A stretch of DNA of 64,000 nt, from assembly GCA_041649015.1 (NCBI GenBank), contig JBAZNU010000008.1, positions 25,425-89,424 on the forward strand. The letters run 5' to 3'. The notes under the pieces are model-generated. The model did not search any database. It worked only from the letters and a program-made list of their open reading frames with translations, and was not told where the DNA came from. Shown in pieces: positions 4,899-52,734 of the stretch. The DNA comes from Ignavibacteria bacterium. GTDB lineage: Bacteria; Bacteroidota; Ignavibacteria; Tepidaquicellales; Tepidaquicellaceae. A program made the translations under genes and the position numbers. Positions within the stretch are counted from its first letter, which is position 1. Each line of letters begins with the position of its first letter.

Positions 4899-5178
4899 GA
4901 TTTGTTTATTAATTATAATCTTTTCAAAATTACAAAGAATAAAGGACTATTTTGATGTAATTCATAATGCACATACAAAACAGCAGGTTATTCAAGGATA
5001 ACTTTAGTCAGGTAACTTTAAGGAGTCAAGTAATTGCATCAAGAAAAAACAACAGGAAAAAGATTGATTTAGTATTTGTATTTTAATAGTATATTTATTA
5101 TTTTGATTGTTCTCTAGAAATACTAAAATATCAAACTTATATCCTCACAAGCAGTGGAAAATTCCCGCTGTTCTTGCA

Positions 5179-5207
5179 TTGACTTATTTTATTTAAATTA
5201 TTAATTT
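5179..5207 (+). promoter_or_regulatory. candidate sigma70-type promoter for the rplB cluster
   Basis: TTGACT (5179-5184), 17-nt spacer, TAATTT (5202-5207), about 90 nt upstream of rplB. An alternative Bacteroidetes-style pair is TTTG (5212-5215) with TAAATTTG (5236-5243). Neither is verified. Confidence 0.3.
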
Positions 5208-5299
5208 AAAGTTTGTCTAAAATTCGTTAAACCAGTAAATTTGAAGTTTAGGTTGTTTTATGCAACAATTTGAAAATTAGAAAACACTTGATTATATAA

Positions 5300-26405: not shown

Positions 26406-29400
26406 ATGAAATTGAATAAATTAAAAATAATAATACTCCTGTTAATTCTGGTAACTGCTTCTGCGGGTATGGCAAAGCCGAGGATTGTTATCGGCGGTAA
26501 TCCATACAGCATGAGTCCTGATGTCGTTGTTTTGCAGAGAATTATTCTTAATGCGAACAATGTTTCAGCATACTTTCAGAATACAGGAATAATGGACCAG
26601 AATACTACTTCCGGTAATACTGCGGGTCTTGAGTGGCCTAAGGGTTCAGGAAGATATGCCAGTTTTACTGCAGGTCTTTCCATCGGTTGCGGTATTAACG
26701 GCCAGTATGCTCAGGTTATGGCATCTTACAAGGGTGAGTATGCTCCTGGTCATTTTAAAGCAGATGGTACCTGGGAAACCAATAATGATTTTAAAATGTA
26801 CGTGGTTAGACTTGGGGATAATGCTTCAAGCAATCCCGATTATGCTAACTGGTACAAGATGGTTCCCTATGGTGCCCCTTATACTGATGTAAATAAAAAT
26901 CATCAGTATGATGATGGAGTCGATATACCCGGTATGACGAATGCGGGACAGACTATTTTCGAATGTATGGGTGATGGTGATGTTTCAAACAGAAGTCCCG
27001 GTGAAGGTTTCGGTGGTGGTGTTACTACTCCGATTCTCGGTGCTGAAATTCATTTCACAGCCTGGGCTTACACAACTCCCGGTCTTGAAGACTTGCAGTT
27101 TGTAAACTGGCTTGTTATTAACAGAGGTACGAATAGATGGGACTCAACTTTTACAGGTGTAGTTGTTGACCCTGACCTTGGCGATGCTGAGGATGATTAT
27201 ATTGGATGTGATGTTACAAGAAATCTTGCATTCTGCTACAATGCGGATAATAACGACGGTACAGGCGCTCCGCCGACTTATGGTGCTGCTCCTCCGGCGT
27301 TTGGTATGGACTATTTTAAGAGTCCTATCTATAAAGATCCTGCATCTCCTAATTATGGAGATACTTTGGGCTTAACATCTTTTGTATTCTTTACCAATAC
27401 AGGAAGTTCACCTCCTCCTTGCGAGTCAGATCCTAATGGTGAGCCGGTACCGGCTTATCATATGCTTCAGGGTTTGAAGAAGGACAGGTCTCCTTTCCTT
27501 GATCCGACTGTTACACCACCTGCAGTAACATTATTCTGTTATCCGGGTGACCCTGAGTCAGGAGCCGGCTGGACAGAGTATAAAGGTTCAGTGCAGAACT
27601 GTAATGGTATAACCGGTACGACTGTTACGGTTAACCCTCCGGGAGACAGAAGATTCATCTTTAATTCGGGTGCACATGATTTTGTTGTTAATCCGGGCGA
27701 TACTCAGAATATTATTGTTGCTAAGATGGTTCAGAGAGGTGCGGATAACAAGAATTCTGTTACATTGTTGAAGAGGATGAGTAATACGGCTCAGATTATT
27801 TATGATAACAATTTTAATGTTACGCCGCCACCGCCGCCACCGTCAGTGAATGCTTCGTTTACTCCGCTGGTTAATGGATTGTGTAATATTACGCTTTCGT
27901 GGGGCGATGCTTCTGAGTCTTATAATTACTGGGATTCGATATTCTACATGCCCGGTGATTCTAATATATATAAGTTTGAAGGTTACGAAATCTACGAAAT
28001 TAATAAATTCTCTAATCAGCTTCCTGATTTTACAAAGCCATATTCTATTGACCCGAATGTTATCAAGTTAGTTGATGCGTTTGATGTTAAGAATAATGTT
28101 GGGTTGGTTGTTGATACTTTCTCGACGGGTACTATTGTTAATAACAGTGAAGTTATGGCTCCATTCCCGATTGTTCCTCCGTTTAATATGACTGTTCCGA
28201 GCGGTTTTCCGAACAAGGGGATTTCAAGGAGTATTACGCTTACAGGTACTAAATTCTCTCAGAATTACAATGGGCAAACTTCTTTTATTTTCGGACAGGA
28301 GTATCAGTTTGCTGTTGTGGCTTATGCGGTTAGTACTTCTGACAAGCTTAAACGAGGGTTTAAGGTAATCAGGAATTCTGTGGGGACGCAGATTGTTAAG
28401 ATTGTTCCTACGGCTCCGCCTGCTGGTACTGTGTTTGTTTATAATAACGGCGATACGCTGAATACAAACATGCGCGACCTTGCGGTCATTCCTGTTATCA
28501 GGAATTCAAATCTGCTTCAGGATGCTACGTACAGGATTCAGTTTAATGCTGATACTACTTACAATATAATGAAGAGATTGCCTTCAGCTACAAGGTTCGA
28601 TACTTTAAGGAGCAATCTTAAACCAAAGGATACTAAGATGGAGTCTGATGAAGCTGCAAGGACTATTGATGGTATTTATATTAATATGGAGAGGATTAGA
28701 TTTGCGGGTACTGCGCCTAATTATACGGGTAATGCAGGTTTGGTGAAAGATCCATCGGCAACTTTACTTCCTGACAGTATTCAGAGCAAGCAGTATGGAT
28801 ATGAGTGGTCGAATCCTTCGAACAAGTTCCTTACCGGGAGCAAGTATATAAAGGATTTATCGAGGCCATGGCAGTCGGTTTCTATGTCGATTTCTTATCC
28901 TATGTCAGGGACTTATAATAATCTGAGGTCTTTGTTGACGGCTGACAAGCTGAGAAAGGTTACTATTGAGTGGACAGGTCAGGGACAGGGTCAGTTTGCT
29001 TACTGGTATCAGGATACTTCGTCAATAAATGATAATTATTATATTTTCAGGGGTATTAAACCGGTTCCGTTTAAGGTTTATGTTGATACTTTGATTATTG
29101 AAGACCCAACTATACCTTCATTCAGGTATGAGAGACGTCAGGTGAATTGCGGTTTTGTAGAGTCTGCCGATGTTAATCCTTTTACAGAGGGATGGAATCC
29201 GACAACGGACACTCTCGGAGGCAAGCTGCTGCTTTATACGTTCGGTACGGGGTATGATACGAGCATTACAACGCCTTATAAGAACAGGAATCTGCTTATT
29301 CAACAGCCGCAATTTGATATTATGTTTATATGGTCTCCGCAGCTGGTTAGCACGGGCGGAAGCGGCCAACCGGGCGAATTTTTCTTCATGTATCCTTATA

Positions 29401-29825
29401 CCGCTACAAGACCGTTTTATTCAGGCACAGCTCCATTATACTATGAGTTTGTTTCAAAGAAGCCTGCGTTCGGCGATATGACTTCAGCTAAGGCTGATAT
29501 GGAAAAGATCAAAGCTGTTCCAAATCCATATTATGGATTTTCAACCTTAGACAGGAGTAGTTCTGATAAGTTTGTGACGTTTACGCATCTTCCGCTGAAT
29601 TGTTTTATCAAGATTTACACTCTGAACGGTGATTTGATAAAAACGATTACAAAGTCAGGTTCAGGCGACCCGACATTCAACTCTACAGCGGAATGGAATC
29701 TTCAGAATGAGGATAATGTCCCTATTGCTTCCGGTATTTACGTGGCATTGATTGATGCTCCGGGTGTCGGAACGAAGATCCTAAAGCTGGCTATATTTAC
29801 GTCACAAGAAAGAATTAATTTCTAA
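26406..29825 (+). CDS. large secreted protein of unknown function with a CTD-like C-terminus
   Basis: 1139 aa. Signal peptide ..VTASAGMA; poly-Pro linker (PPPPPPPS) near residue 475. The last ~100 aa (..KAVPNPYYGFS...FIKIYTLNGDLIKTI...ASGIYVALI...) resemble the T9SS-CTD/FlgD-Ig pattern. No family recognised for the rest. Confidence 0.6.
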   Translation: MKLNKLKIIILLLILVTASAGMAKPRIVIGGNPYSMSPDVVVLQRIILNANNVSAYFQNTGIMDQNTTSGNTAGLEWPKGSGRYASFTAGLSIGCGINGQYAQVMASYKGEYAPGHFKADGTWETNNDFKMYVVRLGDNASSNPDYANWYKMVPYGAPYTDVNKNHQYDDGVDIPGMTNAGQTIFECMGDGDVSNRSPGEGFGGGVTTPILGAEIHFTAWAYTTPGLEDLQFVNWLVINRGTNRWDSTFTGVVVDPDLGDAEDDYIGCDVTRNLAFCYNADNNDGTGAPPTYGAAPPAFGMDYFKSPIYKDPASPNYGDTLGLTSFVFFTNTGSSPPPCESDPNGEPVPAYHMLQGLKKDRSPFLDPTVTPPAVTLFCYPGDPESGAGWTEYKGSVQNCNGITGTTVTVNPPGDRRFIFNSGAHDFVVNPGDTQNIIVAKMVQRGADNKNSVTLLKRMSNTAQIIYDNNFNVTPPPPPPSVNASFTPLVNGLCNITLSWGDASESYNYWDSIFYMPGDSNIYKFEGYEIYEINKFSNQLPDFTKPYSIDPNVIKLVDAFDVKNNVGLVVDTFSTGTIVNNSEVMAPFPIVPPFNMTVPSGFPNKGISRSITLTGTKFSQNYNGQTSFIFGQEYQFAVVAYAVSTSDKLKRGFKVIRNSVGTQIVKIVPTAPPAGTVFVYNNGDTLNTNMRDLAVIPVIRNSNLLQDATYRIQFNADTTYNIMKRLPSATRFDTLRSNLKPKDTKMESDEAARTIDGIYINMERIRFAGTAPNYTGNAGLVKDPSATLLPDSIQSKQYGYEWSNPSNKFLTGSKYIKDLSRPWQSVSMSISYPMSGTYNNLRSLLTADKLRKVTIEWTGQGQGQFAYWYQDTSSINDNYYIFRGIKPVPFKVYVDTLIIEDPTIPSFRYERRQVNCGFVESADVNPFTEGWNPTTDTLGGKLLLYTFGTGYDTSITTPYKNRNLLIQQPQFDIMFIWSPQLVSTGGSGQPGEFFFMYPYTATRPFYSGTAPLYYEFVSKKPAFGDMTSAKADMEKIKAVPNPYYGFSTLDRSSSDKFVTFTHLPLNCFIKIYTLNGDLIKTITKSGSGDPTFNSTAEWNLQNEDNVPIASGIYVALIDAPGVGTKILKLAIFTSQERINF

Positions 29826-29882
29826 ATTAAAATTGAAATCCATGAAAAAGGGTTTAATTAAAAATTTAAGGAGATTTTCAAA

Positions 29883-30929
29883 ATGAAATTGAGTCAAACA
29901 AAAATTATACTAATCTTATTGGTAGTGTTGTTTGCAGCAAGCATTTCTTATGCGGGTCCGAGAAAAAAATACGGAACCTCTGCTGCCCCCGAACTACTTA
30001 TACCGGTTGGCTCAGTCGGAACATCGCTCCTCGGCTCGAATATGTCATACATCTCTGGCGTAGACGCAATGTATTGGAATCCTGCAGGTCTGGCTAATAT
30101 TAAGTCCAGAAATGCAGAAGCAATGTTCTCACATGTTACTTACTTCGCCGATATGAATATTGAATACGTTAGTGTTGCATCTAAGATTGGTAATCTTGGT
30201 GTCCTCGGCGCTGGCGTTAAAGCATTCAACATCGGTGAGTTTGAACAGACAACCGAATATCAGCCGGAAGGTACCGGTGCTATTTTTAAACCTACTTATA
30301 TTACTGCTAACCTGAGCTTCGCTCGACAGATGACCGATAGAATCCGTTTCGGAACTAACGTGAAAATCATCAGCGAATCCGTTGCAGACGTTTCTGCAAC
30401 CGGATATGCGTTCGACTTCGGTATTCAGTATAAAGGCGGGGAAACCGGTTTTAACTTTGGAATTGCTATTAAAAACTTAGGACCTACCATGAGATTCAAT
30501 GGTCCGGGTCTTGATAGAACTATCCAGGGGCTAAACGGGCAGATTTCAACTCAGAGAGTTGTGCTGCAGGATTTCGACCTTCCTACTGCTCTTGACATCG
30601 GGATTTCTTGGGGTAAAATGTTCAAGAATGAAATGGGACTTACCCTCGCTGCAAGCTTTACTAACAACAGCTTCACCAGTGATGAGTTCAAATTCGGTCT
30701 TGAATATACCTATAAAGAGATCTTTTATGTAAGAGGTGCTTATAACCTGGAAATTGATAAAGAAAGTGGTCAAGACATCTCAATTTTTGGACCCTCTATC
30801 GGTGCTGGTATCCACTACCCGATCGGCGGTATCAATGTTGGATTTGACTATGCTTACAGATTTATCAATTCATCAGGCGAGAGTTTGAATTCTACTAATC
30901 AGTTCTTTACTGTTAGCTTAGGATTCTAA
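29883..30929 (+). CDS. PorV/PorQ-family (FadL-like) outer-membrane beta-barrel
   Basis: 348 aa. Signal peptide; ..GVDAMYWNPAGLANI.. motif near the N-terminus; alternating strands; terminal ..FFTVSLGF. Confidence 0.6.
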   Translation: MKLSQTKIILILLVVLFAASISYAGPRKKYGTSAAPELLIPVGSVGTSLLGSNMSYISGVDAMYWNPAGLANIKSRNAEAMFSHVTYFADMNIEYVSVASKIGNLGVLGAGVKAFNIGEFEQTTEYQPEGTGAIFKPTYITANLSFARQMTDRIRFGTNVKIISESVADVSATGYAFDFGIQYKGGETGFNFGIAIKNLGPTMRFNGPGLDRTIQGLNGQISTQRVVLQDFDLPTALDIGISWGKMFKNEMGLTLAASFTNNSFTSDEFKFGLEYTYKEIFYVRGAYNLEIDKESGQDISIFGPSIGAGIHYPIGGINVGFDYAYRFINSSGESLNSTNQFFTVSLGF

Positions 30930-30950
30930 TAATAGTATATAAAATTATAA

Positions 30951-30985
30951 AAGGTAATCATAGTTTCTATGGTTACCTTTTTGTT
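30951..30985 (+). terminator. intrinsic terminator after the PorV-like gene
   Basis: About 13-bp stem aaggtaatcatag / ctatggttacctt (one G-U pair), 3-nt loop, T-rich tail. It overlaps the 5' extension of the next ORF in the ORF track. Confidence 0.75.
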
Positions 30986-31028
30986 ATTTTTTATTCTGGT
31001 AGTTATAACAATAAAATTTTTATTCATC

Positions 31029-32414
31029 ATGAAAACACTAAAATTTTTTTTGTCGCTTGTTTTCTCTTTATTGTTCTTAGGCAATGTATTCTCAGCCGAG
31101 AATTTCTATTTTGATGCGGATTATTCCGTCTTCAGAAGCTCATCAACAAAATCAATTCTCGAGGTTTATTTCTCTTTTACTCAGAAGGGCCTTTTCTTCG
31201 TTAAAACCGGAAATAATTTCGTCGGTGAGGCTAATACACAGATTATCATATTCGATAATGCTACATCAAAAGAAATTTTTAATGAAACCTATGGACTCCA
31301 ATCAAAAGTTGTTGATTCTGCTCAATTTAAACTAAAAAACAAACTAATAGGTCAGCAAAATCTTACTATTCCCAATGGTAATTATACGTTAACATTTATC
31401 GGTTATGATCAGAACAATCAGAATAGAAAAGACACAATCATACTCGAACTAAACCTTAATCAGTTTGAAGATACAAAATCCTCTTTAAGCTCTTTACAAC
31501 TGGCTTCAAGGATTGATAAATCAAGCGATAGCTCAAGTATTTTCTTTAAAAATGGATTGGAGTTGACTCCAAATCCGAATCTTCTCTTCGGAAGTAACCT
31601 TAATAAGCTTTACTATTATATTGAGGTTTACTATCCATTAGTTGATTTCAATTCCGACAGTGCACAATTCTCTGTACTAATTACAGACCCCTCTGGAAAA
31701 TTGCTGAATGAAAAACGAAAGAGCGTCAATACTAAGAATACTATTTATGCAGAAACAGGTTACTTTAACGTTGATTCGCTTATGACCGGTTCTTATTTCA
31801 TAACAGCAGCATTGATAGACAACGTTACCGATAAAAAAGTATCACGGGAAAAAAAGTTTTTCATATATAATAATGCTCCTAAAAAACAGGATTATACAAG
31901 TCCCGATGAAGAAGCATTCATGCAATCTGAGTTTATTCTTCTAACGGAAAGTCAGGTGGAAGATGAATTTAATAAACTGATTTACTTTAGAAATTCTTCT
32001 GATAACAAGGAATGGGATAATCTGAAAACTCTTGAAGATAAAAGAAAGTTTCTTTTCAAATTCTGGAAAAAAAGAGACACAAACCTAAACACCCCAAGGG
32101 TAGAGTCGCGTGATGAATTCTTTAATAGAATAAAAGAAGCTAATAAGCAGTTTAAGGAAAATTTTAAGGACGGATGGAAATCTGACAGAGGACGTATATA
32201 CGTTATGTACGGGGCTCCAAGTGAAGTTGATAGGCATTTTATGGAAGCTGATGTTAAGAACTATGAAATATGGACTTATGATTTCTTTGAAGGGGGAACA
32301 ATATGCGTCTTTGCTGAAGTTCAGACTTCAGGGGAAGGTACCTACTTGCTTGTTCATTCTACTATGCGGAATGAATTCAAAGACCCTGATTGGTACGCAA
32401 AGCTGAAAAAATAA
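31029..32414 (+). CDS. GWxTD domain-containing protein
   Basis: The start is placed at Met21 (MKTLKFFLSLVF.., a signal peptide) because the longer ORF runs through the upstream terminator. C-terminal ..DGWKSDRGRIYVMYGAPSEV.. matches the GWxTD motif region. Confidence 0.7.
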   Translation: MKTLKFFLSLVFSLLFLGNVFSAENFYFDADYSVFRSSSTKSILEVYFSFTQKGLFFVKTGNNFVGEANTQIIIFDNATSKEIFNETYGLQSKVVDSAQFKLKNKLIGQQNLTIPNGNYTLTFIGYDQNNQNRKDTIILELNLNQFEDTKSSLSSLQLASRIDKSSDSSSIFFKNGLELTPNPNLLFGSNLNKLYYYIEVYYPLVDFNSDSAQFSVLITDPSGKLLNEKRKSVNTKNTIYAETGYFNVDSLMTGSYFITAALIDNVTDKKVSREKKFFIYNNAPKKQDYTSPDEEAFMQSEFILLTESQVEDEFNKLIYFRNSSDNKEWDNLKTLEDKRKFLFKFWKKRDTNLNTPRVESRDEFFNRIKEANKQFKENFKDGWKSDRGRIYVMYGAPSEVDRHFMEADVKNYEIWTYDFFEGGTICVFAEVQTSGEGTYLLVHSTMRNEFKDPDWYAKLKK

Positions 32415-35550: not shown

Positions 35551-35754
35551 AAGATAAAACACTTCATTTTGCAGGTTTATTCAGGCGTTATCATTTCCCT
35601 ACGCTTTAGAAATATTCCAAAGATTGATTCATTTACATACCATATGTATTAAATATGAACAATTAGAACAAGAAGCTATAATTCACATTTCTAATTTATT
35701 GTATTCTATTAAACCTATACTTAGGGTTAGAATAGCCTCAATATGAGGTAAAAG

Positions 35755-35805
35755 TTGCGGTCAATTTGCGGTTGTATTGCGGTGATATTGCGGTTAATTT
35801 GGTTT
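35755..35805. repeat. 4 (+1 degenerate) tandem 11-bp units, 7-bp core TTGCGGT + 4-bp variable spacer
   Basis: TTGCGGTcaat TTGCGGTtgta TTGCGGTgata TTGCGGTtaat TTGGTTT.., in a 393-bp ORF-free gap between convergent lptB and the FmdB gene. Confidence 0.9.
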
Positions 35806-35943
35806 TTTACTCATTATGCCTATATTCAACATACTTGTATTTTTAATAAAATGCTGGTTGTAAAAATCATCCCTTTTAAACTGTATCATAGCAAATTAAT
35901 TGCTAAATAATGTTCAATATTTCTTGATTAAATGTTCCCTGTT

Positions 35944-36240
35944 CTAATCTTTCTTCTTTCCGTTTGTCTTCTTTTCTTTAGTCTCCGGTTTCTTCTCTGT
36001 CTTTGCTTTTGGTGTCGTTTCCTTCTTATCAGTTTTTTCTGTTAAAGAACTGCTCTTTTTTGCATAATCCGTCAGATAAAAGCCTGACCCTTTAAAAATA
36101 AGACCGGCCGGCATACTTATCATTTTTTTAAGTGTGCTAAGCCCGCACTCCGGACATAACGTTATAGGGTCTTCTTTTATCGATTGAAATAACTCAAATG
36201 TATTTTTGCAATTATCACATTTATAATCGTATGTTGGCAT
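35944..36240 (-). CDS. FmdB-family zinc-ribbon protein with a Lys-rich tail
   Basis: 98 aa. MPTYDYKCDNCKNTFELFQSIKEDPITLCPECG.. (CxxC...CxxC, FmdB/TIGR02605-type N-terminus), followed by a K/T/E-rich tail. Starts 9 nt after the upstream gene stop. Confidence 0.8.
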   Translation of the reverse strand: MPTYDYKCDNCKNTFELFQSIKEDPITLCPECGLSTLKKMISMPAGLIFKGSGFYLTDYAKKSSSLTEKTDKKETTPKAKTEKKPETKEKKTNGKKKD

Positions 36241-36249
36241 ATTGAACTA

Positions 36250-39200
36250 TTATAAGTTTAAAAATTTATTCTTTGCTTTTTCGAATTCTTCCTTTGTAAT
36301 AAGTTTATCATCAAGGGCTTTTTTCAGTTCTACTAATTTAGCATAACTGATTCCTGATTTAAATTGTTCCCTCTCTTTGGAACCCGCATCATATGTGACC
36401 TCTTCATTTAAAAGATCTTTTACTTTCAGAATCCTCTTAATACCATCACCCGATAATTTTGAGAATGAATCAGGATTGCTCTTTAATTTCTGAACTTTTA
36501 ATATGTATTTTTCCCTTTCCTCATTGGGGATGCTGTTCTCTATCTTTCTCGCCAGTTCTCTCACTACCTTATACTGGTATGTTTCATTCTTCTTTTTAGC
36601 TTCACCGGATATAGCAATCTCTTCGGGCTTATACACATTCTCATAGTAATACTCATAAATTAAAAGTAACTCCGCAAATTTGTTGCACTTAATCAATTCT
36701 TTTTCTACGCTTTCTGCTTTCTTCAGTATTTTATTCCTTAAAGATTCATGTTCTTCTTCATCATAAAGCCTGTTAATTAATCTTGATTCTATACCAAGTT
36801 GTTCAGTTCTTTTTACCGTTATTCCTTCCGGTAGTGTATAACTATACACAGCTTTTTTCATTCCTGTTGTTGTGTCGGTTTCTATTCCTATCTCAAACAG
36901 GTCAAATATTAAACCCATAATAAATGCTTTGTACGATTCATTATATCTTATTTTCTCTTCGAGTGATAGAGGTATTATGTCATTAAACACATAATAGTTC
37001 CTATCAATATGAAGGTCTATATTAATATTTCGTGACAAATTTTTATAATAGCTTCTCATTTCCTCAGATACTGTGTATGAATAAAACAGCGGAAATCCTG
37101 CCCATTCTGTGTAGAATGTAATTGATGAATTGTCCGCCGAATCCTTGAATTCGACCGAGTTTCCTGCGATTGAATGTATTAAACTTTTGAATTTATTAAA
37201 CGATGCTGTGTTAGTTCTTGTTCCTACGTAGAACTTCTTTGCCGAGTCATCCAGTTTAAACCTGCCGGGTATCTCATTTATTCTCAGCCATGGAAAAGCT
37301 TGTGAAAGCATACCCCTTATTTTCGATTCACTCCTCAATACGTCTTTCTCAAAGAGTATCTCAGTAATATTGTAATCTTCTCTGATACCTTCCAATTGTT
37401 TCCTTGCAAATTTAAGCATACTGTTCTCAACTATTTTTGCGTCACTGTCTTTCAGTATATTCACAATGTCCGTTACATCAGATGCATTAAGTTCCTTCAA
37501 CAATTCAAACGCAAGGACCTTTATCTTATCCGTTGCGTTCTGTCCGCTGCCAATGTAAGCAATGTAATAATCATTCTTCACGTCATCAGGGTCATATATG
37601 TGAAGATTAAAACTTGTATCTTGTCTCTGAATAAAGTACTCGTATTTCTTCCTGAAATTATCTTTAAGCAGTCCTAAATTACCGGTAAGCTTGTTTATAT
37701 CGCTTATTAAACCGGTGAAAAGTATCTTGCCGTCATCCGTTTTTGTTCCTCTTTCAATTAATCCGAGTATTCTCTGACATATTTCCTTTGCATAGTATCT
37801 TGAATGAAGCTTGATTAATGCATTGTAATACTCATCAAGTACTTTCAGTAATTTCTCTAAAGTGCCTTCCATAGCGGCTCTTCGCATAACATTAAGTTTC
37901 GACCTTGATTCGTCTTCCCTTAAATCCTGAAGTCGGCTCTTCACTTCTGCCTCTAATCGTGTTATCAGAATCTGTAAATCTTTTATTTCCTTGTCAAATG
38001 TTGGTATGTAATCAAAATTTCCGTTAGTCAGTATAAACTGTAACCTTCTGAGTAAGCTTATTGAATAAAATACTCCTCTTGTTGAGTCATTTATTAGTGA
38101 ATTAATCTTTCTCTCAAGCTTGCCTGTGATGTTCCTTTCTCTGTCACCTATTATATTCTTTATAATGTTATTTCTATTAGAATATATTTGTGAGTAAAAT
38201 AAGCCCTTTCTGCTTACATCGTTGTCATCTTTAAAGTTTGTTTCAAACTTCATCTTTTCGTTTGTTATGTATGATGACCACTTATCACCGCGTTTACCGC
38301 TTATTAAATCATTCTTTAAATTGTTTAGGAAGGATTTTATCTGAGATTGTATGGACGATTTCTCTCCCATACTGTAAAGCGAATTAAGCATTTGATGCTT
38401 TGAGTTTGACTCTGCAAGACCAAGTTCCGGAAGCATCTCTTCTCTCAGGTATTCATCAATACTACTCTGAGAACCCTCCGCATAAGTTAAATAATAATTA
38501 ATGATATCCTCGCACAACTTGTATGCACAGGATAAAATTATTCTGTCAACAGGAATAGAAATTGTCGCTTGACCTAAAGTTGAGTATTTTCTCGAGAATG
38601 TATTCTCCGTAACTGTGTTATCATCAGGAAAAAGTCTTTGCTTGTATTGAACAAGGTTTACTCTAACACCTCTTTTATAATTAGCAAAATCTGAATTAGA
38701 GAAATCCTGGAATATTGTATCTGATATCATTTTGTATATATCCCTGTTACTCATTTCCGAAAGGGATAAGTTCTTACAGTTTTCACCATCTATCAGGTAT
38801 ACATCATCGTAAACTCCGGGTTGGAATTTATGAGGTTCATTCTTCTTCCAGGAGATATTAAATGGATTTTTTAGATTGTAATATTCAAGCTCCATAAGAG
38901 CCGCATATCCGTTCGCAAAAACCCTCTCTTTACCGTATCCTTGGTATATTTTAGGTAATACTATATACGAAGAAGAAATTGCCTGATTCCTAAATAAATG
39001 TCTTATCATAAACCCAAGGTCAAGGAACATACCCGAACCGGTTCCCCCGCTAATTGAAGTTATTACATATACGTTTATCTTTTCTGTGTTTACATTCTTT
39101 ATGTTATGTTTTTCTTTAACAACGTTAATCGACCTTGAATCTGTAATCGTAGATTTCGCGGACGTAAGTTTATATACTATTTCATCGTAATTATGGAAAA

Positions 39201-39648
39201 GTGCAAGGCGTGCCGCAGGTCTTATCTGGCCAGCGCCTGTATTCATTGTTCCGAGTTTTCCGATTTCTCCTGTCGTGCTAAGCCATTCCTTTATATGAGG
39301 AACGTCATTAATTCTGTGTATGTAATCTGACGGATTAACAGGATTGAATACTTTCTCTGATGGTTTGAAGTCTATTTCATTTATAAGATAATCTCTTTCA
39401 CGCGCTATTCCGCTTTCTTCAGCAGGGGCGTTGTCCGTGTCAATGTACAAGTATGATGTAATAGGGAAGTCGTCAAGTGATCCGTATTTTTCGACAAACT
39501 GTCTCCTTATTCTTAAAAGCACTTCTTTTCCGGTTCCTCCAAGACCAATTAGGATTGTTGGCATGAATTCCTGTGTCTTGAGCTCTAATGAACCCTTCTC
39601 AATCGTTACAGGTTCTTTTTGTTCCGGTAATTTAAATGGATCAGCCAT
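36250..39648 (-). CDS. giant tubulin/FtsZ-superfamily GTPase-like protein (Tubulin_2 / FtsZl-1-like) with a helical middle region and a C-terminal SHOCT domain
   Basis: 1132 aa. ..ILIGLGGTGKEVL.. (T1-like GxGxxG loop), ..NTGAGQIRPAARLAL.., ..VYVITSISGGTGSGMFLDLGFMIR.. (tubulin signature GGTGSG). The last ~30 aa, ..YAKLVELKKALDDKLITKEEFEKAKNKFLNL, match the SHOCT pattern. The middle ~650 aa are K/E/L/I/N-rich and look helical or coiled-coil. Confidence 0.7.
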   Translation of the reverse strand: MADPFKLPEQKEPVTIEKGSLELKTQEFMPTILIGLGGTGKEVLLRIRRQFVEKYGSLDDFPITSYLYIDTDNAPAEESGIARERDYLINEIDFKPSEKVFNPVNPSDYIHRINDVPHIKEWLSTTGEIGKLGTMNTGAGQIRPAARLALFHNYDEIVYKLTSAKSTITDSRSINVVKEKHNIKNVNTEKINVYVITSISGGTGSGMFLDLGFMIRHLFRNQAISSSYIVLPKIYQGYGKERVFANGYAALMELEYYNLKNPFNISWKKNEPHKFQPGVYDDVYLIDGENCKNLSLSEMSNRDIYKMISDTIFQDFSNSDFANYKRGVRVNLVQYKQRLFPDDNTVTENTFSRKYSTLGQATISIPVDRIILSCAYKLCEDIINYYLTYAEGSQSSIDEYLREEMLPELGLAESNSKHQMLNSLYSMGEKSSIQSQIKSFLNNLKNDLISGKRGDKWSSYITNEKMKFETNFKDDNDVSRKGLFYSQIYSNRNNIIKNIIGDRERNITGKLERKINSLINDSTRGVFYSISLLRRLQFILTNGNFDYIPTFDKEIKDLQILITRLEAEVKSRLQDLREDESRSKLNVMRRAAMEGTLEKLLKVLDEYYNALIKLHSRYYAKEICQRILGLIERGTKTDDGKILFTGLISDINKLTGNLGLLKDNFRKKYEYFIQRQDTSFNLHIYDPDDVKNDYYIAYIGSGQNATDKIKVLAFELLKELNASDVTDIVNILKDSDAKIVENSMLKFARKQLEGIREDYNITEILFEKDVLRSESKIRGMLSQAFPWLRINEIPGRFKLDDSAKKFYVGTRTNTASFNKFKSLIHSIAGNSVEFKDSADNSSITFYTEWAGFPLFYSYTVSEEMRSYYKNLSRNINIDLHIDRNYYVFNDIIPLSLEEKIRYNESYKAFIMGLIFDLFEIGIETDTTTGMKKAVYSYTLPEGITVKRTEQLGIESRLINRLYDEEEHESLRNKILKKAESVEKELIKCNKFAELLLIYEYYYENVYKPEEIAISGEAKKKNETYQYKVVRELARKIENSIPNEEREKYILKVQKLKSNPDSFSKLSGDGIKRILKVKDLLNEEVTYDAGSKEREQFKSGISYAKLVELKKALDDKLITKEEFEKAKNKFLNL

Positions 39649-39677
39649 ATCTTTTATTTGTAGTTTTAATAAAATTA

Positions 39678-39705
39678 ATCATATCTCATTTTATAAAATA
39701 GTGAA
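39678..39705 (-). promoter_or_regulatory. candidate sigma70-type promoter for the tubulin-like gene
   Basis: On the minus strand: TTCACT, 16-nt spacer, TATGAT, about 30 nt upstream of the 39648 ATG, in the 77-bp AT-rich gap. Confidence 0.3.
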
Positions 39706-39725
39706 AAGACATGAATAATTATTTA

Positions 39726-40013
39726 CTATAATACATTGATAGTAATTTTTTCAATAACCTCTGCATTTTTTGCTTCATAAGAAACGTCCGCTATCTTCCC
39801 TTCGGGAAATTCAGTAATCATTATCTCAGCCGATATCTTTATATCGCATGAACAGAAAAAATCATTCTTGCTTAAATATTTTCTTTCTGTCTGTCCATCT
39901 TTATCAAACTTCCCGTACGGGTCAAAAACAAGATCTCTGCCTTCTATCGAATGTGATTTATGGCATTCCTTGCATTTGAGCTTGAGATATCCCTTTCTTA
40001 TGAAACGTATCAT
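39726..40013 (-). CDS. small Cys-containing hypothetical protein (possible zinc-binding)
   Basis: The start is placed at Met25 of the track ORF (MIRFIRKGYLKLKCKECHKSH...FFCSCDIK..; CxxC plus CxC). The upstream 24 codons translate a perfect palindrome and begin with TTG, so they are probably non-coding. Confidence 0.45.
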   Translation of the reverse strand: MIRFIRKGYLKLKCKECHKSHSIEGRDLVFDPYGKFDKDGQTERKYLSKNDFFCSCDIKISAEIMITEFPEGKIADVSYEAKNAEVIEKITINVL

Positions 40014-40050
40014 TGTAGAATTAGTTTTGGTTGTTTTGTGAGGATAGTTT

Positions 40051-40079
40051 AACATCCTTCCCTCGCCGGGAAGGATGTT
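40051..40079 (-). other. GC-rich stem-loop separating the fatty-acid genes from the tubulin-like module
   Basis: Perfect 11-bp inverted repeat aacatccttcc / ggaaggatgtt (12 bp with the c-g closing pair), 13 nt downstream of the reductase stop. No clear U tract on the minus strand. Confidence 0.6.
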
Positions 40080-40092
40080 CTTCAATTTTATT

Positions 40093-40890
40093 TTAGAATC
40101 CGCTTATCGTTTCGCCGCCATCAATGTGTATAACACATCCAGTCATCCAGTGCGAGTCTCGTTTATAGTTGTCAAGAATAAAATTCGCAATATCTGTTGG
40201 TTCTGTAAGTTTTCCTTGCGGATTTCTCATTAGAGCCATTTTTATCAGGTCATCATTTTTTGGTATTTTTCTTAGTGCAGGAGTGTCCGTAACACCCGCA
40301 AGCAGGGCATTAACAGATATATGCCTGTGTCCGAGTTCTAGCGCTAACTGTCTTACATGTGATTCAAGACAAGCTTTAGCTGCTGATACTGCTCCATAGA
40401 ACTCAATGACTCTGGAACCGCCCGATGATGTCATAGCATATATTTTACCCCCTGCTTTCATCAAGTCTCTTTTCAATACTTCCTGCGTCCAGTAAACAAG
40501 ACTGTGAGCCATTACGTCAACAGTCATTTCCATCTGCTTCATATTTATTTGATCGTTGCCGTCTTCACTCACGAATTTTCTTAGAGTACCGAAAGCCAGT
40601 GAATGAACCAGAACCTTTATCGTTGGATTGTTTTTATTCTTGAATATCTCAACAACTGTATTAAGTACATCTTCACGTTTGTGCGGGTCAGCTGCATTGA
40701 TGTTGAAGAAATGTGCTTCAACTCCGTATGATTTGATTTCTTCAATTTCTTTCTCTACGTCAGGCATTGTTGTTGCCCTGTCTAAATGAACACCGATTAT
40801 GTTTACCCCATCCTTTGCAAGAGTAAGTGCTATTTCCTTTCCAAAACCGCTTGATGCTCCAAGAATTAGCGCAAAATATGTTTTCTCCAT
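40093..40890 (-). CDS. SDR-family enoyl-[acyl-carrier-protein] reductase-like protein (FabL/FabI-like)
   Basis: 265 aa. Gly-rich ..LGASSGFGKEIA.. and a Y-x6-K catalytic spacing (..FYGAVSAAK..), typical of enoyl-ACP reductases rather than the classical YxxxK SDRs. Lies downstream of accB-accC. Confidence 0.55.
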   Translation of the reverse strand: MEKTYFALILGASSGFGKEIALTLAKDGVNIIGVHLDRATTMPDVEKEIEEIKSYGVEAHFFNINAADPHKREDVLNTVVEIFKNKNNPTIKVLVHSLAFGTLRKFVSEDGNDQINMKQMEMTVDVMAHSLVYWTQEVLKRDLMKAGGKIYAMTSSGGSRVIEFYGAVSAAKACLESHVRQLALELGHRHISVNALLAGVTDTPALRKIPKNDDLIKMALMRNPQGKLTEPTDIANFILDNYKRDSHWMTGCVIHIDGGETISGF

Positions 40891-40899
40891 TATATATTA

Positions 40900-41448
40900 T
40901 TATTTACTTTTTAAAGCTATTATGCTCATTATCAGACTGACTATGAACAGAAAAATCAATATTGTCATAAAGGCAGCGGATGACCACATACCTGCAATTA
41001 TTCCCCAAATTATAAAAATCCAGATTACTGTTACTATAAAAAATAAATTCCAGCTTAGCAGCAATGATTGTCTTGTGGACTTTGTCCTGTGAAACGTCCT
41101 AAATAATGTCTTCACAAACAGAAAAAAGAAGAATCCTGCACCCGCCACTGAAAGAAGTATGTAAACAAATAAATTTACATTCGTAAATCTTGGTGTTTCC
41201 TTTTCGGATGCATTAATCACTGAGTCCGTCTTAATTACTGCTGTACTCGTAGTATCAATCTGGTTTATTATCTTTGAAGTATCAATCTGTACAGCATTAA
41301 TCTTTGATGTGTCTGTTTGCTTCTTTCCTGTTGAGTCCGTCTTCTTTGTCTGTCCGGCTAACGTAACAGTAAAAAGCAGCAATATTGTCAGCACTGCTGT
41401 TCCTGCTATTTTAATTCTACTATACTTCAATTTCTTCTCTTTTTTCAA
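40900..41448 (-). CDS. hypothetical membrane protein
   Basis: 182 aa. N-terminal signal/TM, a Thr/Asp/Ser/Lys/Ile-rich segment (..[15 protein letters not shown]..), then about 3 TM helices. The start overlaps the accC 3' end by 29 nt. Confidence 0.5.
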
Positions 41449-42763
41449 TGTAGTTCGTATCGAAATCGTTTTCGATAAACTTTTTCTCTCTGAAAATTTG
41501 TTTAAAAATTGGTAATGTTGTTTTTACTCCTTCAATTATAAATTCATCGAGAGCTCTCAGCATCCTCGCTATTGCCTCTTCTCGTGTAGTTCCGAGAACA
41601 ATCAGTTTAGCTATCATAGAATCATAATGCTGTGGTATGTTATAACCGGAGTAGCAGTGTGTATCGATTCTTACTCCATGTCCTCCTGGTGCATTGAACG
41701 CAGTAATAAGTCCAGAACTAGATTGGAAATTCTTCGAAGGGTCTTCAGCATTTATTCTTACTTCAAAAGAATGCCCGAATAATTTCTGCTTCTTCTTCGA
41801 TATCCTTTCCCCCGCTGCTATTTTTATTTGTTCTTTCACCAGGTCAAGTCCTGAAACTGCCTCTGTAATAGGATGCTCTACCTGAATTCTTGTGTTCATT
41901 TCCATGAAATAAAAATCCTTATTCTTATCCACTAAAAATTCAACCGTTCCAAGGCTCTCATAATTTACCGTTTTCCCTGCAGCTATTGCAGCCTCGCACA
42001 TTCTCTCTCTTAAATCCTCATCAATTATAGGAGACGGTGATTCTTCAATTAACTTCTGATGCCTTCTTTGAACCGTACAGTCTCTTTCTCCCACATGTAC
42101 AATAGTCCCGTACTTATCGCCCATTATCTGAATTTCAACGTGTCTTGGATTTTCAACTAATTTCTCAATGTACATACTGTCATCCCCAAATGCAGCCATT
42201 GCCTCACTTTTTGCTATAAACATTGCCTGCTCTAAATGACTCGCTTCACGTACTATTCTCATGCCCTTACCTCCGCCTCCCGCTGCTGCTTTTAGCATGA
42301 TAGGATATCCAATCCTTTCTGCAATACTTGCTGCCGTCTCATAATCACTAAATTTCCCGTCGCTGCCCTGAACAAGCGGTACACCTGCTTCCTTCATAAG
42401 TCCTTTGGCTATCGCTTTATCTCCCATCTTAATTATCATTTCAGGTTTTGGACCTATAAATGTAATGTTAGTATCTGCGCATATTTCCGCAAATTCAGCA
42501 TTCTCCGCAAGAAATCCGTATCCGGGATGTATCGCGTCAGCATTCGTAATCTCCGCTGCTGCGATTATTTTAGGTATGCTTAAATAACTTTGGTCCGACT
42601 GCGGAGGCCCAATACATACGGCTTCATCTGCAAATCTTACGTGTAAAGAGTTCTTATCTGCTGTCGAATAAACAGCAACTGTCTTAATGCCTAATTCTTT
42701 GCAGGTTCTTATTATCCTTAACGCAACTTCGCCTCTATTAGCTATTAGAATTTTATTAAACAT
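41420..42763 (-). CDS. accC: acetyl-CoA carboxylase biotin carboxylase subunit
   Basis: 447 aa; [26 protein letters not shown].., ..[17 protein letters not shown].., ..[11 protein letters not shown].. Confidence 0.95.
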
Positions 42764-42788
42764 ATATTCTCCCCCGATAAGTTTATTT

Positions 42789-43277
42789 TTATGCTTTCTC
42801 TATTAACATCAGCGGCTGGTCGTACTCAACTGCCGTGCCGTTTTCTACAAGAATTTTTATTAATTTACCGGAAACTTCTGATTCAATTTCATTCATTAGT
42901 TTCATAGCTTCAATTATGCAGATTACCGACCCTGTACTTACTAAGTCTCCTGCTTTTACGTATGGTTCTGCATCAGGCGAAGGTGATGCATAGAACGTTC
43001 CTACCATGGGAGACCTGACTTCGTAAACATTAGTTCCTAATATTTCCTCTTTCTTGGTTTCCGATTTTGTCTCATGAGTAGTTTCCATACCTGCTGCCGG
43101 AGTATGCATAAATCCACCACCTTGTTGAGGTAACATTGGTACTGTTCCTGCAAACATCTTAGGTCTCGGTTTTGATAATCTTATTTTTGTGCCCTCTTCT
43201 TCAATTTCTATTTCGGCAAGATTGCTTGTATCAAGCATCTTTATAATCTTTTGTAAATATTTTAGGTCCATTTTCAT
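42789..43277 (-). CDS. accB: acetyl-CoA carboxylase biotin carboxyl carrier protein
   Basis: Biotinylation motif ..[11 protein letters not shown].. The start is placed at [12 protein letters not shown].. (or 43271, MDLK..), since the longer track ORF overlaps efp by 44 nt and homologs begin MD(I/L)(R/K). Confidence 0.9.
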
Positions 43278-43305
43278 CTGTATTTTTAAATTAATAAAAT
43301 TCTGT

Positions 43306-43869
43306 TTATTTTTTAACTCTTTCGAGATATTCCCTCGTTCTAATATCAATTTTTATGAACTCTCCTTCATCTATAAATAAAGGTACATTCACTTCTGCAC
43401 CTGTTTCCAGTGTTACAGTCTTGGTCGCATTTGTTGAAGTATTGCCTTTAACTGCCGGAGGTGCCGAAGTAACCTGAAGTACAATATGTGGAGGTAAAAC
43501 CAGTGATAATGCCTTTCCATTGTGGAAAACAATCTGAACTTCCTGTCCGGCTTTTAAAAATTCACCTTGCTCTCCAACTATGTCTTCCAATAAATGTATC
43601 TGATCGTACGTCTCGTTCTCCATGAAGTAGTACTCTGTATTATCTTTGTACAAATACTGATATACCTTCTGTTCAAGTCTCTCTACAGTAATTTCCTCAC
43701 CCGAACGGAACCTGTTGTCAATCATCTTCCCGTTTCTCAAATTCCTCATTTTTACCTGATAAAATGCCCTTAAATTGCCGGGTGTTCTGTGCTCTACCTG
43801 TAAAACTTGGTGTAAATCGTTGTTAAATTTGATAATAATACCATTTTTTAAATCTGAGGTTGTTGCCAT
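43306..43869 (-). CDS. efp: elongation factor P
   Basis: 187 aa; [28 protein letters not shown]...[11 protein letters not shown].. Confidence 0.93.
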
Positions 43870-50859: not shown

Positions 50860-52734
50860 TTATCTTACTAACACCATCTTTTTAGTATCATTGTAATCCT
50901 CTGCTGACATTCTGTAAAAATAAACACCTGAGGAAAGTATTTTAGCGTTATATTTTACAGTATATTCACCTGTTCTGAAAAATTTATTGACTACTTCTGC
51001 AATCTCTTTGCCTCTAATGTCGAATATTTTAATAACAACGTTACCATCTTTTGGTACAGAGAATTTAATGTTAGTTTCGGGATTAAAAGGGTTTGGATAA
51101 TTATTGTATAATTTATATCCAGTGATTCTCGATGTTTCATTAGAAATGAAAGCTGTGCTTAATTCCTTGATTCTACCAGTAGAAACATAATTAAGTGTAT
51201 CGAATGTTGATACAAAATTCTTAATGCATATATATTCAGGTGTAAATGTAGGTGTCAGGCTGCTTATCTGTATCCCAAGCTGTGAGAGTGCAAAAAGTAA
51301 ACCTTCATTAGCAGATGCAGAGTAGTTTGCAGATGTCGAAAATGCTGTGTCATTTACGAACATGCTCGAGGGAATCACTCTTTGACCGATTGGCAGGGTT
51401 TTATCATAATCGAATCTAAGACCGGCAAACTGAGGGAAGTAACTTACGTTATTCGTAATTAAAGCGAATATCAGTTCGAGTCCTCTTTTCAGTTCTGCAC
51501 CCGTAATACTGAATTTCATAACGTTGAAACCGAGTCCTGTAGCAGTGTCATAACCGTAAGGCATAGTCCTTAAAATGTCGTACCCTGTTACACCTCCATG
51601 GTAAATTGTTTCTGCGGTCAGTCCAACGGCTGTCATTGAAATTTGTGTATTTGTAAGACTTCTTTGTGCGTCCGTAACAAGATTACCAAGAGGAGTATCC
51701 CTGAAGGATATACTATCGTTCCAGGAAGGAGAAATATTACTTTTTGCATAAGTCACATTCTGGAAAACATCACCATATCTGTTTATTATTCCTTTTTTAA
51801 GTGAATTTACATAGCTCTTGATTTCAGCATTCTCAGGAATACTTTGATTTATTTCAACGAGACTATAGTTTTCGAATATTACGTTCCCGTTATCATATTC
51901 GAACCTAAGTTTTCCGGCATATCTGTAGTGACTTCCCGGGTGGCATATTATCGTGCTGTGACCCGCGGGATTCGGCACGAAAACCGGCTGTGTTGTTATG
52001 AAATGGTCATGTCCTCCGAGAATTATGTTAATACCAGGAACGACTGAAGCCATGAAATTATCAAATTCATATCCCATGTGCGAGAGGCACACTATTACAT
52101 CGCATCCTTGATTTATTAGTGCTGCTGTCGTTTTTCCTGCAATCTGAAGAGCACTGTCATTTATGACAACAGGAAACGGATTACTTGAAGGGTCGTTTAT
52201 TGTAAGACCGAATATTCCAATCTTTACGCTGTCGTAATGTTTTATGATATATGGATAAACGAATTGAGTTAATGAAGGAAACCCGTTCATGTTTAAGTTT
52301 GAAGATACAAGAGGAACGGCACTTGTATGGAAAGCAGTATCAAGCGAATTGTACAAAACCTGCGGACCTACGTCTAAATCATGGTTTCCGACTGCAATAG
52401 CATCAAGATTCAGTCTGCTTAAAACATTATATTCAGGAAATGAAAAGTACTTATTAAAAAAGAAGTCTCCTGTGAATATATCACCCGAATGGAATACCAT
52501 TACGTTCGAGTCTGTGCTGCGTGTGTTAGCAATGAATGTAGCAAGTCTTGATATACCGCCTTTAGTGTATTCGCCCTGAATGTTCTTTTCACCCAAACCT
52601 AATACATAAGAGTGTGAGTCGCTGAAATGAATTATAGTAAACGGGATTTCTGTGCTATTCGAAACAGAATTGAAGAATAAAAGAAATCCTGATATAATAT
52701 ATATTATTTTACTTTTTAGCATAAAATTAATCAT
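50860..52734 (-). CDS. secreted metallophosphatase/5'-nucleotidase-family protein with a T9SS C-terminal sorting domain
   Basis: 624 aa. Signal peptide; ..IIHFSDSHS.., ..HSGDIFTGD.., ..VGNHDLD.., ..GGHDH.. calcineurin-like motifs; 5'-nucleotidase C-domain-like middle. C-terminus ..YNNYPNPFNPETNIKF...SGVYFYRM...KKMVLVR. Confidence 0.78.
   Translation of the reverse strand: MINFMLKSKIIYIISGFLLFFNSVSNSTEIPFTIIHFSDSHSYVLGLGEKNIQGEYTKGGISRLATFIANTRSTDSNVMVFHSGDIFTGDFFFNKYFSFPEYNVLSRLNLDAIAVGNHDLDVGPQVLYNSLDTAFHTSAVPLVSSNLNMNGFPSLTQFVYPYIIKHYDSVKIGIFGLTINDPSSNPFPVVINDSALQIAGKTTAALINQGCDVIVCLSHMGYEFDNFMASVVPGINIILGGHDHFITTQPVFVPNPAGHSTIICHPGSHYRYAGKLRFEYDNGNVIFENYSLVEINQSIPENAEIKSYVNSLKKGIINRYGDVFQNVTYAKSNISPSWNDSISFRDTPLGNLVTDAQRSLTNTQISMTAVGLTAETIYHGGVTGYDILRTMPYGYDTATGLGFNVMKFSITGAELKRGLELIFALITNNVSYFPQFAGLRFDYDKTLPIGQRVIPSSMFVNDTAFSTSANYSASANEGLLFALSQLGIQISSLTPTFTPEYICIKNFVSTFDTLNYVSTGRIKELSTAFISNETSRITGYKLYNNYPNPFNPETNIKFSVPKDGNVVIKIFDIRGKEIAEVVNKFFRTGEYTVKYNAKILSSGVYFYRMSAEDYNDTKKMVLVR

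Follow-up and report, generated by a model that had tools for sequence, protein, structure and literature searches.

The window analysed in this study is a stretch of 64,000 nt from an Ignavibacteria bacterium (GCA_041649015.1, contig JBAZNU010000008.1, positions 25,425-89,424), and its central gene (36250..39648, minus strand, stop codon counted in) encodes an 1132-aa protein, here called Tub2. Tub2 is a genuine FtsZl1 protein, a member of the FtsZl1/Tubulin_2 family, which has diverged furthest within the tubulin/FtsZ superfamily. Comparisons with related genomes indicate that, in one clade of uncultured Ignavibacteria, Tub2 belongs to the core chromosomal genes, is inherited vertically and is constrained to the degree of housekeeping genes. 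We consider it probable, at roughly 60%, that Tub2 acts as a core, GTP-binding, self-associating scaffold in a constitutive process related to the envelope or membrane, and not in defence, partition or primary cell division. A preliminary description of this locus had combined Tub2 with a small Cys-rich open reading frame (ORF) and an FmdB-type zinc ribbon gene into a three-gene module. The three ORFs lie where it placed them, the gap between the large ORF and the FmdB gene is 9 nt as it had counted, and all of the sequence features that it quoted are present. The module itself did not hold up, as described below.

Tub2 is regarded as a true FtsZl1/Tubulin_2 protein because it matches the Pfam profile Tubulin_2 (PF13809; E=6.6e-70, 236.6 bits against a cutoff of 27; aa 32-383 on profile positions 1-355 of 356) and because its AlphaFold2 model matches tubulin, gamma-tubulin and CetZ. 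The model was built on a 53-sequence alignment (24-89% identity) and reached a mean predicted local distance difference test score (pLDDT) of 83.8 and a predicted template-modelling score (pTM) of 0.70. When it was compared with the PDB by Foldseek, the top 50 matches were all tubulins, gamma-tubulins and the archaeal CetZ1/2 (E ~1e-5, probability 1.00), and TubZ was not among them. The TM-score to CetZ1 was 0.51 over ~370 columns. Among viral models (BFVD), only phage FtsZ/tubulin matched Tub2. The preliminary description had called the large ORF a tubulin/FtsZ-superfamily GTPase of the Tubulin_2/FtsZl1 group and had made this assignment depend on profile or structure searches; both gave significant similarity to the tubulin fold.

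The tubulin/FtsZ-fold GTPase head was delimited by Foldseek and by invariant residues to aa 27-388 (38485..39570, minus strand). It carries, in the order that had been proposed, the nucleotide-binding loops GLGGTGKE (the T1 loop; aa 35-42, 39523-39546, minus strand), GAGQIRPAARL (aa 138-148) and SISGGTGSGMFLD (aa 198-210); the T4 signature SGGTGSG lies at 39031-39057 on the same strand. G35, G37, G38, G40, G201, G202, T203 and G204 are invariant in the 53 family members, down to 24% identity. Similarity to FtsZ at the sequence level was slight. Alignment of the family profile with E. coli FtsZ by hhalign covered only the S4-T4-H4-S5 segment at a probability of 2%. An NSDFAN motif between two helices (aa 318-323) is like the NVDFAD of FtsZ by eye only. 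PDB sequence searches with the single Tub2 sequence returned nothing, and the apolipoprotein and designed-helix matches obtained with the 53-sequence profile were rejected as non-homologous and compositionally biased. No transmembrane (TM) segment was found in Tub2 by a TM scan.

The remaining two thirds of Tub2 are also predicted with confidence; the C-terminal 748 aa, modelled separately, had a pLDDT of 83.3. Past the head, the AlphaFold2 model contains ~400 aa of helices, an alpha/beta domain, a further mixed region, a linker and a two-helix tail. The helical, stalk-like region (aa ~389-795; 37264..38484, minus strand; DSSP on the models) holds two helices of ~35-43 residues at aa 548-580 and 589-631, and its sequence matches were solely of the apolipoprotein, compositionally biased type. 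It had been described as a ~650-aa helical region; the helices extend over ~400 aa, and the remainder is the conserved alpha/beta domain and the mixed region. The alpha/beta domain (aa ~796-965; 36754..37263, minus strand) is recognized by the models and by invariant columns of the 53-sequence alignment: G809, E848, Y868, H880 and G952 are among the few family-invariant residues outside the head. It had no Pfam or PDB match, and the C-terminal 748 aa as a whole gave no significant fold match to solved structures (best E=0.53). Similarities of this portion to XaxA/YaxA, F-BAR proteins and the MxB stalk were of low probability, reflected generic long helices and were not used.

Tub2 ends in a low-confidence linker (aa ~1088-1100; pLDDT <50 at aa 1084-1098) and a SHOCT-like tail (aa 1101-1132; linker and tail together 36253..36387, minus strand) with helices at aa 1102-1113 and 1119-1129. 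The SHOCT profile PF09851 fell below threshold in Tub2 itself (16.2 bits against a cutoff of 27, E=0.009, aa 1104-1128), while precomputed Pfam annotation places it on many orthologues 73-87% identical (e.g. P0021-P0042). The SHOCT tail of the preliminary description is thus retained as a SHOCT-like two-helix tail, and this tail is specific to the Ignavibacteria clade.

The FtsZl1 family was defined in 2010 by Makarova and Koonin, who described a C-terminal coiled-coil region, unidentifiable T6-H7 elements and vWA-containing (von Willebrand factor A) operons as the usual setting, and who speculatively proposed a membrane-remodelling role (PMC2875224). A later survey handled Tubulin_2 proteins as a divergent outgroup (PMC9871819). 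In Synechocystis, phototaxis is lost on mutation of sll0445 (Tubulin_2) and of the adjacent sll0446, which has an actin/HSP70 fold (PMC9880817). The literature yielded no biochemical study of an FtsZl1 member. An exhaustive HMMER search over 1.84 billion cluster representatives gave 3750 matches to Tub2 at E<1e-3, and many representatives of 1050-1400 aa align to its residues ~25-1075 at 25-42% identity. A length about three times that of FtsZ or TubZ, previously taken as an oddity of this protein, is therefore the norm in the family (~1100 aa).

Outside the clade, the family has a different genetic setting. All six non-Ignavibacterial relatives with readable contigs (L026, L027, L028, L030, L031 and L032; ~6 kb on each side), among them P0122 (42% identity) and members of the Acidobacteriota, for example a Bryobacteraceae MAG (metagenome-assembled genome), share one operon. 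Its first gene encodes a beta-propeller of the pyrroloquinoline quinone type; the second, a ~530-580-aa protein with an N-terminal DxSxS motif resembling a metal ion-dependent adhesion site, whose vWA matches were sub-threshold in three of five; the third, a protein of 100-250 aa with an N-terminus that is hydrophobic by eye, suggesting secretion or membrane binding. The Tubulin_2 gene and a gene for an 850-970-aa HSP70-like protein follow, with further uncharacterised proteins after them (two noted). Several of the partner proteins start with zinc ribbons. This propeller/vWA-like/HSP70-like operon appears to be largely undescribed. Searches of the 64-kb window by tblastn with 16 partner proteins from L026-L028 gave nothing significant. 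The vWA-type operon, which is typical but not universal for FtsZl1, is thus replaced in the window by efp, accBC, a short-chain dehydrogenase/reductase (SDR) gene and ruc as the neighbours of Tub2. Relatives also differ at the C-terminus: 13 of 131 full-length representatives have a zinc ribbon after a low-complexity linker. Of the 22 non-Ignavibacterial representatives that rank highest (P0124-P0145), 11 have it, and in most acidobacterial relatives this fused ribbon is the Pfam family DZR (double zinc ribbon). In one member, P0163, Tubulin_2 is fused to a TIR_2 domain (E=3e-21) at the N-terminus.

In contrast to these relatives, Tub2 in its clade occupies a fixed position among housekeeping genes. 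Scanning one genome per GTDB species identified 25 loci, all in Ignavibacteria-type MAGs, and a 26th (L029) was obtained through lookup of P0121; the orthologues are 60-100% identical. Searches by tblastn with the window neighbours revealed a conserved layout of efp, accB, accC, a gene for a 165-182-aa membrane protein, a FabL-like SDR gene of the enoyl-reductase type, Tub2 and FmdB. In this co-directional string Tub2 is followed by FmdB alone, and lptB, pdxJ and genes for an Rce1-like protease and YbbR are convergent to the string. Of the 19 clade loci that reach upstream, 18 keep the synteny of the part before Tub2, the exception being L005; the 18 include L029/P0121, the most distant lineage of the clade (62% identity). 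In the window, this upstream string (40093..43869, minus strand; annotated with Pfam and NCBIfam) consists of efp (43306-43869), accB (42789-43349), accC (41420-42763), the membrane protein gene (40900-41448) and the SDR gene (40093-40890), all on the minus strand.

In the part of the clade that is ~70% identical, Tub2 retains 69-71% identity to the window protein, compared with 64-67% for AccC, 61-65% for EF-P, 63-67% for the SDR, 70-72% for PdxJ and 76-79% for LptB. By these values, Tub2 is constrained like central metabolic enzymes over its full length of 1132 aa; its mean column identity among 18 orthologues is 78%. The G+C content at the locus matches the surroundings, and the window is core chromosome, with SecY, GAPDH, a TonB-dependent receptor and components of the type IX secretion system (T9SS), which agrees with the chromosomal location first given. 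Such a pattern is in keeping with vertical inheritance and with a constitutive role of Tub2. One assembly was set aside: L025 (CAWIJF010000009.1), at first sight a distant orthologue of "55% identity", is full of frameshifts. It keeps the synteny, and both Tub2 and its neighbours are frameshifted, most likely through long-read assembly error and not through pseudogenisation.

Two members of the upstream string deserve separate mention. The membrane protein has 3-4 TM segments by TM scan and no family match; it is conserved clade-wide between accC and the SDR gene, its gene start overlaps the end of accC, and it perhaps belongs to the acc/fab string of this clade in particular. The SDR scored best against FabL (153 bits; equivalog cutoff 328) and also reached 84 bits against the model for the EF-P 5-aminopentanone reductase YmfI, a score of some note since the gene sits in an efp-led string.

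A working model can be drawn from these data. The head of Tub2 would bind GTP, as the intact T1, T3 and T4 loops suggest. The protein would self-associate through the head, by analogy with the tubulin superfamily, and/or through the SHOCT-like tail, in a nucleotide-regulated manner, and would serve as a cytoplasmic scaffold in a constitutive process. A relation of this process to the envelope or membrane is plausible in view of the contexts of the family and of the genes for lipid synthesis nearby. The linker and short helical tail might be a partner-docking element comparable to the linker-plus-peptide tails of FtsZ and TubZ, and the linker and double zinc ribbon may dock partners likewise in acidobacterial relatives.

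Several points weigh against this model. The connection of Tub2 to lipid or envelope biology is drawn solely from adjacency, and its co-transcription with the efp-acc-SDR genes solely from spacing; sigma-70-like matches upstream of Tub2 were no commoner than chance, and promoter and terminator counts were not above those of shuffled sequences. GTP hydrolysis and polymerisation are at most putative activities, for Tub2 as for other FtsZl1 proteins. A T7-type catalytic loop was not verified, since the hhalign alignment reached the T4 region only. The model has no four-stranded tubulin C-terminal domain after the head, so canonical head-to-tail filaments are not assured. The TIR fusions in some members mean that the FtsZl1 family overall is not purely housekeeping. 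Finally, the clade is seen from MAGs only: no cultured species emerged from the searches, including the one seeded with the 62% lineage.

A bolder form of the scaffold model is also conceivable. Tub2 might be an FtsZl1 giant freed from an ancestral vWA-like/HSP70-like operon, that is, a constitutive, essential-like cytoskeletal or membrane-organising protein with non-canonical assembly through head, stalk and SHOCT-mediated oligomerisation, co-expressed with lipid-synthesis genes and assisted by Ruc. We regard this extended form as doubtful. If true, Tub2 would stand for a novel class of cytoskeletal polymers in bacteria, one whose 750-aa module has no structural relative among solved proteins.

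The gene downstream of Tub2 (35944..36240, minus strand; 98 aa) encodes an FmdB-type zinc ribbon, as originally described: it scored above the cutoff with TIGR02605 (E=2.3e-19, 69.2 bits against 31.3) and with PF09723 (E=2.4e-16). The N-terminal zinc ribbon, which starts from the initiator Met, has the form C8xxC11-N17-C29xxC32, and C8, C11, C29 and C32 are invariant. The conserved core of 60 aa reads MPTY[DE]YxCxxC...CPxCG...GLIFKG[ST]GFYxTDY, with GLIFKGSGFY in the window protein. The tail is hydrophilic; because it is rich in S/T/K/E and varies from ~30 to 90 aa among 22 orthologues, the "polycationic tail" of the preliminary description corresponds to the usual degenerate tail of the family. 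The FmdB family is also that of Ruc; the studied member, Ruc of M. tuberculosis (Rv0991c), is annotated as FmdB family (PMC13407613). It has a zinc-binding CxxC-N17-CxxC ribbon with Cys 8, 11, 29 and 32 and a disordered C-terminal half, and acts as a holdase once oxidised. It also binds DnaK and aids the refolding of proteins by DnaK/DnaJ/GrpE (PMC7448276). By family membership with Rv0991c, the window protein may have the same oxidation-activated chaperone activity, and the linkage of other FmdB genes to GrpE, described below, points indirectly the same way.

It is possible that Tub2 and this protein form a dedicated two-component system, in which the ribbon protein is a specific chaperone or adaptor for Tub2 assembly and replaces the fused ribbon and the HSP70-like partners of the relatives. 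The FmdB gene follows Tub2 co-directionally at 5-40 nt in all 22 clade loci that extend that far, down to 62% identity, and the pair is intact in L005 despite the replacement of its upstream side. The fused ribbons of the family, the zinc ribbons at the start of partner proteins in the canonical operons, and the HSP70-like giants of those operons, set beside the binding of DnaK by Ruc, are in keeping with such a system. However, the entire region is syntenic, so the adjacency weighs little, and FmdB/Ruc is a near-universal small gene that was present in both Ignavibacteriae genomes surveyed for ruc (PMC7448276). The fused ribbons are DZR, a different Pfam family from Zn_ribbon_8. We also collected 80 metagenomic FmdB loci from outside the clade (L033-L112; 21 with at least 3.4 kb and 35 with at least 1.5 kb upstream). 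The FmdB cores at these loci, which have no Tubulin_2 neighbour, are 51-68% identical to that of the window, which points to generic evolution of the core, and tblastn with 14 diverse queries found Tubulin_2 in 0 of the 80. The recurrent partner was GrpE (PF01025, E ~1e-46), directly upstream and co-directional in 13 of the 80 (e.g. L068 5418-5984 and L081 5369-5998), with variable genes downstream of FmdB. This linkage matches, from independent data, the report that ruc adjoins DnaK, DnaJ, GrpE or ClpB in 21% of FCB (Fibrobacteres, Chlorobi and Bacteroidetes) bacteria (PMC7448276). FmdB-lptB synteny was not found outside the clade, where the matches were generic ABC-ATPase similarity with the exception of one locus. 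A dedicated two-component system is therefore rather unlikely. The simplest reading of these comparisons is that the FmdB gene is the ordinary ruc gene of the lineage, with a clade-specific adjacency to Tub2, and its earlier description as a nucleic-acid or membrane adaptor gives way to that of a Ruc-type chaperone.

The third ORF of the proposed module lies on the other side of Tub2 (39726..40013, minus strand; 95 aa from ATG; the mechanical ORF extends to 40085 if a TTG start is used). It does precede Tub2, as had been reported, and its four Cys are conserved. However, it is intact only in the window and in L001, L002, L004, L018 and L024, where Tub2 is at least 86% identical, and its synonymous to non-synonymous codon changes are ~1:1, compared with ~5:1 for the neighbouring SDR gene. 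Searches of Pfam, NCBIfam, PHROGs and PDB assigned it to no family. The ORF is probably genuine, but weakly constrained and young. In L004, a gene for a 417-aa major facilitator superfamily transporter separates it from Tub2 (region 4296-6000), and in L005 (1-6000) a type I restriction-modification (R-M) system (HsdM/HsdS-like) on the opposite strand replaces the entire upstream side, including this ORF. With the Cys ORF outside the conserved unit, the three-gene module is not supported.

The G+C-rich hairpin that was said to set Tub2 off from efp-accBC-fabL (40051..40079, minus strand; identified by stem scan and folding energy) is real. It begins 13 nt past the SDR stop codon and has a 12-bp stem with six G-C pairs and a folding energy (dG) of -21 kcal/mol. 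It is limited to the six genomes with the Cys ORF, across which dG is -17 to -25 kcal/mol, and no U-tract follows it on the coding (minus) strand. In 13 other loci there is no hairpin; there, without the Cys ORF, 30-46 nt separate the SDR stop from the Tub2 start (ATGGAAGGTAAA...), and no stable structure lies between them. Since both elements are missing where this short spacing is kept, the hairpin and Cys ORF look like a recent insertion of ~370 nt into an ancestrally contiguous SDR-Tub2 junction. This junction (window 39650-40092) acts as an insertion hot spot in the sublineage of the window, and its cargo seems to be tolerated.

The variable junction also bears on the idea that a tubulin-like NTPase is at the centre of an anti-phage or conflict system here. 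Besides the R-M system directly upstream of Tub2 in L005, the Cys ORF had a weak PADLOC match to DrmMI (E=3.5e-5), the canonical relatives lie in vWA-like, beta-propeller, HSP70-like, PP2C and RHS neighbourhoods that recall predicted conflict systems, and the TIR_2 fusion suggests that parts of the FtsZl1 family may work in immune or conflict signalling. The Ignavibacterial Tub2 gene has none of the hallmarks of a conflict system. Tub2 matched nothing in PADLOC or PHROGs, and the small proteins gave weak PADLOC matches only (PDC-M14A, E=0.015, in addition to DrmMI). There is no compositional anomaly and no vWA-like, propeller or HSP70-like partner in the window, and the R-M and Cys-ORF insertions are variable cargo of the junction, not conserved partners. 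Strict synteny with housekeeping genes and clade-wide constraint at the same level argue against a defence role, and equally against partition; the conflict alternative raised by the preliminary description is thus very improbable.

Tub2 is even less likely to be the main or auxiliary cell-division tubulin of the clade, in place of FtsZ or alongside it. The gene occurs clade-wide, evolves slowly and is single-copy-like, the protein has a tubulin fold, and its flexible linker and short conserved C-terminal helix recall the layout of the FtsZ tail. However, FtsZl1 genes usually coexist with canonical FtsZ, and their discoverers judged a role in division unlikely (PMC2875224). The features by which FtsZ is recognized were not found: PF00091 scored 16.8 bits against a cutoff of 33, FtsZ_C and Tubulin_C domains were not detected in the Pfam search, the T7 motif NxDxxD was not recovered, and there is no division and cell wall (dcw) cluster around Tub2.

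The preliminary description had also drawn attention to an iteron-like array near FmdB. The array (35755..35801, plus strand) consists of four copies of the 11-bp unit TTGCGGTnnnn (4.3 copies by Tandem Repeats Finder) and sits in an unusually long 393-nt gap (35551-35943) between the convergent lptB and fmdB. It is real and non-random, as the pattern TTGCGGTNNNNTTGCGGT matched three times with none expected in shuffled sequences, but its conservation ends at L001 (97% identical); it is absent from 24 of the 25 related loci. As a permissive Rfam search over 30-46 kb of the window returned nothing, neither the array nor the intergenic sequence matches an RNA family in that collection. The array is no more than an oddity of this locus. 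A TubZ-TubR-tubC-like DNA segregation system, with Tub2 as the motor, the small Cys and zinc-ribbon proteins as adaptors and the array as the centromere, would account for a tubulin-superfamily GTPase flanked by two small Cys-containing proteins and a non-random array, but it is largely refuted on present evidence and hardly credible any longer, because the array lacks conservation, the Cys ORF is confined to one lineage and can be separated from Tub2, FmdB is a chaperone family (PMC7448276) and not a TubR-type winged helix, the setting is core chromosome and neither plasmid nor prophage, and the Foldseek matches of Tub2 given above do not include TubZ.

Elsewhere in the window, a T9SS cluster (26406-32414) encodes a protein of 1139 aa whose C-terminal part is weakly similar to PorZ/PorU, a member of the PorV/PorQ family (29883-30929; E=6.5e-47) and a protein with a GWxTD domain (30969-32414). 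T9SS C-terminal sorting domains were found in two further window proteins (21391-23226 and 50860-52734).

Within the tubulin superfamily, FtsZl1/Tubulin_2, described sixteen years ago, is the branch that is understood least. Neither the family nor its size or fold relationship is new, and NCBI annotation already calls these proteins tubulin-like; what is new is the contextual variant, without a vWA-type operon, with a SHOCT-like tail and with core synteny. The present analysis removes the readings as a partition system, a defence system or a set of DNA-binding adaptors, and relabels the FmdB neighbour as a Ruc-type chaperone gene. The hosts are uncultured, and the function of Tub2 in this clade is deduced from sequence, model and context. 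However, the clade offers an unusually clean case, a single, strongly conserved, core chromosomal gene without the multi-gene operon of its relatives, together with a confident model in which a tubulin-like head is joined to two thirds of a protein that match no solved structure. For these reasons, Tub2 is well suited to structural and biochemical studies of the family.

Comparison with known systems places the locus as follows. The FmdB protein shares with Ruc the identical Cys 8, 11, 29 and 32 and a low-complexity tail of disordered-type composition; it differs in that its gene directly follows a Tubulin_2 gene, a pairing met nowhere else. With TubZ-TubR-tubC, the locus has in common a tubulin-superfamily GTPase beside small proteins and a short repeat array, whereas its core chromosomal setting, its unconserved array, the lack of a TubR-like protein and the architecture of Tub2, unrelated past the head fold, set it apart. 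Dynamin-like proteins provide an analogy only, that of a GTPase head, a long helical stalk and a distal domain in a proposed membrane-associated scaffold; their P-loop GTPase fold is unrelated to the tubulin fold of Tub2, and the Foldseek match to the MxB stalk was not significant (probability 0.09). FtsZ, tubulin and CetZ resemble Tub2 in the N-terminal fold of ~380 residues, the SGGTGSG signature and the linker followed by a short C-terminal element. In Tub2, sequence similarity to them is confined to the T4 region, the four-stranded C-terminal activation domain is missing and a 750-aa extension without a match among solved structures takes up the rest. The closest relation is to FtsZl1 (PMC2875224), with which Tub2 shares the profile match, the T1/T4 head, the absence of recognisable FtsZ_C and Tubulin_C domains, the helical C-terminal extension, the length of ~1100 aa and an alignment that runs to ~1075. 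Unlike the six non-Ignavibacterial relatives examined, Tub2 lies not beside vWA-like, propeller and HSP70-like genes but in a housekeeping efp-accBC-SDR string, and in its clade a SHOCT-like tail stands where acidobacterial relatives carry a double zinc ribbon.

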